From assembly GCA_021149145.1 (NCBI GenBank), contig GCA_021149145.1_4322.1: a DNA stretch of 34,803 nt; one strand, 5' to 3'. The number at the start of each line of letters is the position of its first letter. The first letter of the stretch is position 1. The DNA is from a phage. Of the stretch, positions 30,549 to 30,977 are shown in pieces. The notes beneath the pieces were generated by a model. It was given only the letters and a program-made list of their open reading frames with translations, was not told the DNA's origin and did not search any database. Position numbers and translations under genes: made by a program.

Positions 30549-30977
30549 TCAGAACGGAATGTCATCGTTAAACTGCTGCTGTTGCTGTTGCTGTTGCTGC
30601 TGTTGCTGTTGCTGCTGTTGCTGTTGCTGTTGCTGTTGTTGTTGCTTCCCGCCATCGCCACGCTGACTAAACTCAAGTCTAGGGTTGTTCATGTTAATGG
30701 TTACGTAAGTTTTACCATCTTTATCGCGAACATCTACAGCCAAAGTTTCGCAACTTACGCTAACGATTTTACCTTCCTGAAATGCCTCATCGTACCATGC
30801 AATCATTGATTCTTTTGCGAAGAAGACAGCTCGATAGTTACTGTAATGTACCTGACCATCCTTGTCCTTGTAGCGCTCGCTTAAATCAACTGCATACATT
30901 TTCCATGTTCCGTTAGCATTCTGACCTTCTTTGGTGAACGGAGCACGACGGATAACACCAGTGATTACGTGACTCAT
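30549..30977 (-). CDS. ssb: Single-stranded DNA-binding protein with poly-Gln linker
   Basis: 142 aa; OB-fold-like N-terminal region; C-terminal acidic tip ...FNDDIPF, the canonical SSB tail; 24 consecutive Gln codons precede it. Confidence 0.85.
   Translation of the reverse strand: MSHVITGVIRRAPFTKEGQNANGTWKMYAVDLSERYKDKDGQVHYSNYRAVFFAKESMIAWYDEAFQEGKIVSVSCETLAVDVRDKDGKTYVTINMNNPRLEFSQRGDGGKQQQQQQQQQQQQQQQQQQQQQQQQFNDDIPF
30573..30644 (-). repeat. (CAG/CAA)24 trinucleotide tract encoding poly-Q
   Basis: 24 consecutive CTG/TTG triplets on the plus strand, in frame with SSB. Confidence 0.9.

Follow-up and report, generated by a model that had tools for sequence, protein, structure and literature searches.

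The single strand DNA binding protein (SSB) encoded in the window, a 34,803-nucleotide stretch of phage DNA, carries a linker that is an outlier in purity rather than in length: it is the Gln-rich linker of a whole phage family minus all of its interruptions. This linker is neither new nor expanded, because relatives share a Gln-rich linker of equal median length. It is most probably an ordinary disordered SSB linker that was homogenised by slippage or unequal recombination and that now represents a near-neutral extreme of the family.

The ssb gene (30549..30977, minus strand) encodes 142 aa, which is also the median protein length of the family, and has 153 listed homologues with 80-98% identity. 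Four segments are distinguished, all on the minus strand. Residues 1-99 form the predicted OB-fold ssDNA-binding domain (30681..30977, from the AlphaFold model), residues 100-111 (RLEFSQRGDGGK; 30645..30680) combine a family-invariant RLEFSQR segment with a variable Gly-rich hinge and mark the beginning of the disordered tail, residues 112-135 are the poly-Gln tract that makes up most of the disordered linker (30573..30644), and the C-terminal tip FNDDIPF (30552..30572) is near the E. coli SSB tip DDDIPF and is the presumed docking site for SSB-interacting proteins. The C-terminus of the protein therefore reads ...EFSQRGDGGK-Q24-FNDDIPF, followed directly by the stop codon. The earlier note had placed 24 uninterrupted, mixed CAG/CAA codons at 30573-30644, between the OB fold and the acidic tip of an SSB; its coordinates are exact (13 CAG and 11 CAA codons, visible as CTG/TTG triplets on the plus strand), and the assignment to an SSB linker is borne out by phrog_44, the AlphaFold model and structure searches. 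Read on the minus strand, the tract is an imperfect (CAACAG)n hexamer repeat of the form CAA CAA (CAA CAG)4 CAG (CAA CAG)2 CAG (CAA CAG)3 CAG CAG. It is the top tandem repeat of the 34.8-kb window (TRF 99-116 versus ≤38 elsewhere), with periods of 6, 15 and 21, of which period 6 corresponds to 12.3 copies with 89% matches, and, judged by 100 dinucleotide-preserving shuffles of the window, the expected number of 12-codon CAR runs is 0.00. The repeat also spawns ORFs in other frames, namely a poly-Leu ORF (30582..30809, plus strand), a poly-Cys ORF (30490..30666, plus strand) and a Ser/Asn-rich ORF (30539..30676, minus strand), and such spurious ORFs within 30490..30809 could mislead gene callers. 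They were taken as repeat artefacts because the frame conserved in all homologues is that of Gln.

Assignment of the protein to the SSBs rests on profile, annotation and structural matches. The match to phrog_44 ('single strand DNA binding protein') spans residues 1-142 (E 5.8e-30), and several GenBank proteins with 85-98% identity to the window SSB are named SSB. An AlphaFold2 model built with 35 family sequences predicts a confident five-strand OB barrel plus one helix over residues 1-99 (pLDDT 81-93) and a disordered tail over residues 100-142 (pLDDT ~35). Bacterial SSB/PriB folds head both structure searches, and an SSB of the T7 gp2.5 type was rejected on these grounds. Sequence-based family models gave a different picture: the Pfam search returned no match of the window SSB to PF00436 at E ≤ 0.1, and the scores against TIGR00621 (18.3 bits versus a cutoff of 53.95) and PRK08763 (21.6 versus 246) are both below threshold. 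The description 'bacterial-type SSB' in the earlier note thus appears to hold for architecture and fold class and not for family membership by sequence. A PDB sequence search with the window SSB found no solved structure; its tract-related match, to an ataxin-3 poly-Gln chimera, was discarded as a low-complexity artefact. The RLEFSQR segment (residues 100-106, 30660..30680) is invariant in all columns from R100 to R106 across 35 aligned family members, though it is predicted to be disordered, pLDDT being <50 from residue 100 on. This segment may form a strand or an interface only within the oligomer or on DNA.

Linkers were compared across 153 close relatives gathered by two protein searches, with the linker defined as the stretch from the invariant PRLEFSQR to the tip and measured in 119 of them. 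All 153 listed homologues have the same layout with a Gln-rich linker, and 150 of them end in IPF. At 29 aa, the window linker equals the median of its relatives (range 22-36, SD = 3 aa, n=119). Its Gln fraction is 0.83, compared with 0.48-0.73 (median 0.61) in the relatives, its longest Gln run is 24, compared with 3-11 (median 6), and its Gln region contains no other residue, compared with 3-11 non-Gln residues in the relatives (n=119 in each case). Those interruptions are Pro, Arg, Lys, His, Asn and Thr; Pro occurs in 118/119 linkers, Arg or Lys in all 119, and an [RKH]Q0-3P motif in 108/119. Among the 153 listed homologues, including those from a full-length search that rewards long Gln runs, no run exceeds 11 Gln, and none exceeds 8 in 65 representatives at 50% identity. 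These more distant representatives (50% clusters) have linkers rich in Gln, Pro, Gly and Ala, with 20-40% Gln, and DFDDDIPF-like tips. The comparison of tract length across relatives that the earlier note had called for thus supports its view that a pure homopolymer of such length is unusual, and among these 153 relatives purity is indeed unique to the window; what that note had missed is that a Gln-rich linker of similar length is found throughout the family.

Searches of larger collections were directed at this allele and its neighbours. A collection of 15 billion proteins does not contain the exact window SSB, a pattern of (CAR)14 plus tip has no match in IMG/VR, (CAR)12 plus tip has none in JGI metagenome contigs, and a flank-anchored pattern for alleles like that of the nearest relative (contig L004, below) has none in IMG/VR. 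Runs of (CAR)24 as such occur in at least 120 IMG/VR contigs, and the names of at least 24 of the 80 listed mark them as giant-virus MAGs. These contigs were set aside as encoding unrelated proteins, as no listed ORF in the Gln frame ends in ...IPF. Two recurrent, unrelated groups of viral proteins with runs of at least 24 Gln were recognized in IMG/VR (loci L030, L047, L061, L077, L094, L118 and L124, and L007, L027, L045, L070, L075 and L123): one has basic tails ending in ...RVVRRVRRGFF or ...NGIVRTVRRVNGRKLF, and the other is a protein of ~185 aa with a hydrophobic end, ...FFFVNKLVHKYV.

The phage of the window is a Drexlerviridae/Braunvirinae (T1/Rtp-like) coliphage whose closest GenBank genomes are AN_ECEAS and ES, with ~94% nucleotide identity over part of the genome. 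The ssb gene is the last of an exo-erf-ssb module on the minus strand, which begins with a PD-(D/E)XK (DUF3799) exonuclease (31739..32710; PF12684 E 1.5e-21, phrog_412 E 1.8e-100) and continues with an Erf-family single-strand annealing protein directly upstream of ssb in the same orientation (31018..31710; PF04404 E 1.4e-27, phrog_155 E 4.8e-48). Convergent with ssb is an 817-aa tail-fibre gene (28065..30518, plus strand), and the two genes share a bidirectional intrinsic-terminator-like hairpin (30521..30540) that is conserved in the relatives L001, L003 and L004. The same exonuclease-Erf-SSB order, convergent with a tail-fibre gene, is also found in L001-L004 and L126-L132. The tail-fibre product varies greatly among close relatives, with 817 aa in the window versus 781, 473, 811 and at least 754 aa in L004, L126, L128 and L132, and exchange of a host-range cassette adjoins the ssb terminator.

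Two further observations concern relatives of this locus. In a Logan contig (L132 1501..2404, SRR4242136), a Cys/His-rich ORF of 142 aa, likened by eye to HNH endonucleases, lies straight after ssb and overlaps its end; the same arrangement occurs in P0004 and P0019 and, more distantly, in P0124. The ssb stop codon is replaced in relatives of this type, which adds a 15-aa extension (ASFGLQYGKHRIYAL) past ...DIPF, so that the Phe with which the tip normally ends free would be buried. Near-identical SSBs (P0007, P0024, P0047, P0055, P0097 and P0112) have been deposited as 'hypothetical protein' in assemblies of Streptomyces lividans and several E. coli; the contigs concerned are 44-47 kb long and probably represent complete genomes of T1-like phages that contaminated the bacterial assemblies or were assembled along with them.

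The origin of the pure tract is best approached from the nearest relative among those listed, P0001 (Logan contigs L004 and L005), which has 99.1% identity over the 333 nt encoding the OB domain. P0001 and the window have in common GGC GGG AAG CAA CAA CAA CAG CAA CAG, the last six codons being the first six of the Gln tract, after which P0001 diverges (CAG CCT CAG ... CGA CAA CCG ...) to encode KQ7PQ6RQPQ5F. Because the OB-domain DNA is near-identical in P0001, yet its tract is interrupted, the window linker appears to have been rebuilt on an otherwise barely changed background. Codon order within the tract is consistent with a hexamer-based process, at modest significance against shuffles: codons alternate more than expected (18 runs versus 12.9, P = 0.025), a two-codon periodicity is present (P = 0.017), and the longest repeated codon string is 10 (P = 0.035).

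Relatives provide a direct view of such changes. The ssb genes of L126 (SRR8381870) and L127 (SRR21278120) are identical except for 12 additional nt in L127, which are two CAGCAA units and convert Q7 to Q11; mismatches number 0/318 in the OB domain, 0 in the rest of the linker, and 0/174 in the tip and 150 nt downstream. This difference points to hexamer slippage operating in the ssb family. Q5 and Q10 are likewise found in L128 and L130, on a slightly diverged background, and linker length differs in 308 of 355 protein pairs with at most one difference in the last 100 OB residues, a count inflated by the use of a non-redundant database. The earlier note had proposed that mixed codons would damp slippage without abolishing it and that the tract could vary between isolates. 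Damping agrees with the folding energies, with single strands of the tract at -4.6 and -4.5 kcal/mol versus -24.6 for pure (CTG)24 and -13.8 for (CAG)24, and the hexamer indel between L126 and L127 shows that slippage persists in the family. Variation in length is likewise seen between these family relatives, the window phage itself being represented by one isolate. Given the same weak folding energy, the idea that the tract forms a stable hairpin or a regulatory structure at the DNA level was rejected. With imperfect CAA/CAG repeats and weak folding, the tract lacks the long perfect repeat and strong slipped structure of a hypermutable locus, and whole-codon or hexamer indels cannot switch the reading frame.

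Flanking sequence introduces recombination as a second process. From 31160 to 30681, which takes in the OB domain of the SSB and the C-terminal portion of Erf, the window has ~99% identity to L004 and is more diverged from ES. From the ssb stop codon on, through the terminator and into the 3' end of the tail fibre's gene, the likeness to L004 is gone and the sequence is instead identical or close to that of ES/AN_ECEAS. Mismatches with L004 accordingly rise from ~6 in 480 nt upstream of the tract to 12 in 60 nt downstream of it, followed by 33 in 44 nt; the comparison with L001 (phage ES) gives the reversed pattern, and the 40 nt past the stop codon are identical. The tract thus appears to lie at a mosaic junction of two phage lineages, with the switch in or beside it, and the low-complexity linker may be a joint at which recombination connects the recombination module with the host-range module. 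It is possible, though doubtful, that recombination was the main source of the pure tract, through a misaligned crossover, possibly mediated by Erf, that linked the Gln tracts of two Braunvirinae phages infecting the same cell; the OB domain would then come from an L004-like parent and the tip and downstream region from an ES-like one, and the interrupted stretch of the linker would have been lost in the exchange. The L004-like sequence upstream of the tract, the ES-like sequence downstream and the position of ssb next to the Erf annealase gene are all in keeping with such an event. The tip codons, however, differ from both candidate parents at 3-4 of 21 nt, which leaves the crossover point undefined, a single crossover alone does not explain the regular CAACAG periodicity, and the L126/L127 pair has clean hexamer indels without flanking exchange. 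Slippage and misaligned recombination in the tract are both plausible, and neither excludes the other.

On the preferred reading, the tract would be the intrinsically disordered linker of a phage-encoded SSB, in which the usual interrupted Gln-rich sequence has been homogenised to pure poly-Gln in this phage. Replication slippage that added and removed CAACAG-type units would be the likely route, perhaps in combination with unequal recombination within this low-complexity sequence, total linker length being held at what may be a family optimum. By analogy with studied SSBs, Q24 would act as a flexible tether that makes FNDDIPF accessible to SSB-interacting proteins of the host and probably also to Erf, encoded next to ssb; the tip would presumably recruit host SSB-interacting proteins and the phage Erf annealase to SSB-coated ssDNA. 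Its job may depend on length and composition rather than exact sequence, possibly with weak Gln-mediated contacts between SSBs. The narrow length spread (SD 3 aa) in a slippage-prone sequence suggests stabilising selection on linker length, and, as the interruptions vary freely, the exact linker sequence seems to be under little constraint. Published work on other SSBs provides the background. The linkers of bacterial SSBs show little conservation, measure 25-125 aa and are rich in Gln, Gly and Pro, and partner proteins of E. coli SSB bind the acidic tip only (PMC7145534); the sequence and role of that tip are established (PMC5928155, PMC7145534), the last six residues of a phage SSB are needed to stimulate its cognate annealase (PMC5928155), and the availability of the tip, cooperativity and phase separation all depend in part on how long the linker is and how it is composed (PMC7145534, PMC7584906, PMC12143593).

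Loss of all Pro, Arg, Lys and His interruptions, including the [RKH]Q0-3P motif present in 108/119 relatives, could be functionally meaningful rather than neutral. An adaptive origin of this kind is improbable; it would hold that, freed of Pro and charged interruptions, SSB oligomers make stronger Gln-Gln contacts and form condensate- or prion-like assemblies in which factors for replication and recombination become concentrated, or that they are viewed differently by SSB-sensing defence systems. The outlying purity of the linker (run of 24 versus a maximum of 11 among listed relatives) fits this idea, as do several published precedents: E. coli SSB owes both phase separation and cooperativity to its linker, a stretch of linker from Campylobacter hominis SSB leads to prion-like aggregates in E. 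coli (PMC7584906, PMC12143593), prion-like domains are predicted in phage SSBs (PMC5694896), and phage SSBs are published triggers of Retron-Eco8, AbpAB, Hna and DARNA. A strong advantage should nevertheless recur, and the allele occurs once among >150 relatives and not at all in the IMG/VR or JGI contigs scanned. Furthermore, 24 Gln is short for spontaneous amyloid formation. The C-tail of the T7 SSB is also dispensable for activation of Retron-Eco8 and DARNA, as published. Still less probable is a qualitatively different material state, in which Q24 would give stronger, possibly gel- or prion-like SSB condensates on ssDNA as a replication or recombination compartment, or a changed recognition by SSB-sensing defences; if true, linker slippage would be a rapid tuning knob for SSB material state or defence recognition across Braunvirinae phages.

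It is highly unlikely that the pure tract is an interrupted linker that was mis-assembled or mis-sequenced, for although the allele is unique, its exact protein is missing from the large protein collection and assembly errors are frequent in low-complexity repeats, the 72-nt tract is aperiodic enough for ordinary reads to span and anchor (longest internal exact repeat 10 codons), it is in frame with tip and stop codon intact, the resulting linker has exactly the family median length, and over its first 18 nt every codon is the one that the nearest relative has.

Many deposited phage genomes already contain this SSB family, complete with Gln-rich linker and host-like tip, and computational work has pointed to prion-like, Q/N-rich regions in phage SSBs (PMC5694896). 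New here are a single allele with a homopolymeric Q24 linker and clear evidence of hexamer slippage in the ssb family, the L126/L127 pair documenting such slippage inside a core replication gene of a phage; beyond this, the linker is an ordinary low-complexity one, and no new system is indicated. A literature search yielded no paper that deals with the SSB linkers of Drexlerviridae or with poly-Gln tracts in the SSBs of phages, and no published test of ssDNA binding, oligomeric state or partner binding for this SSB family. Studies of how SSB linkers affect cooperativity, partner access and phase separation have been done almost entirely on engineered variants of E. coli SSB. In this phage family, nature provides a series of linker alleles on a near-invariant OB domain, ranging from heavily interrupted Gln/Pro/Arg linkers to pure Q24 at similar length. 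The pure allele suggests that Pro-containing linker motifs are dispensable for a presumably viable phage, and it lends itself to asking whether Gln content by itself can tune the self-association of SSB.

Several known systems share features with the window SSB. Eukaryotic mixed CAG/CAA poly-Gln tracts are likewise in frame with interleaved CAA and CAG codons, and their interruptions reduce hairpin-mediated instability. They differ in that the window tract is in a phage gene, is 24 residues long and belongs to a linker that is Gln-rich by descent, changes in the family being small indels of hexamer units; the ssb family sequences compared contain no sign of disease-type dynamic expansion. Prion-like Q/N-rich SSB domains, as predicted in phages (PMC5694896) and described in Campylobacter hominis (PMC7584906), are likewise Q-rich disordered regions in the SSB linker; they are long mixed Q/N domains, whereas the window has a short homopolymer. 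E. coli SSB has the same arrangement of OB domain, low-complexity Gln-containing linker and tip, with the last six residues NDDIPF in the window and DDDIPF in E. coli, and appears to be the closest structural class for the window OB fold. However, the window OB sequence has no detectable Pfam homology and falls far under the TIGR00621 cutoff. The disordered Gln/Gly/Pro-rich linker of E. coli SSB, which leads to an MDFDDDIPF tip, is 56 aa long, about twice the length of the window linker, and contains 17 Gly, 11 Gln, 16% Pro and aromatic/Arg 'stickers' (PMC12143593), whereas the window linker has three Gly and neither Pro nor aromatic residues. The closest counterparts are the SSBs of other Braunvirinae/Drexlerviridae (phiA2-1 GP31, Veterinaerplatzvirus Jeanpiccard, JulesPiccard, DTL, ES and AN_ECEAS), which share an OB domain with 85-99% identity, exo-erf-ssb synteny, a Gln-rich linker of ~29 aa and an F-x-x-x-IPF tip; they differ from the window in having 3-11 non-Gln residues in the Gln region and runs of at most 11 Gln, compared with none and a run of 24.
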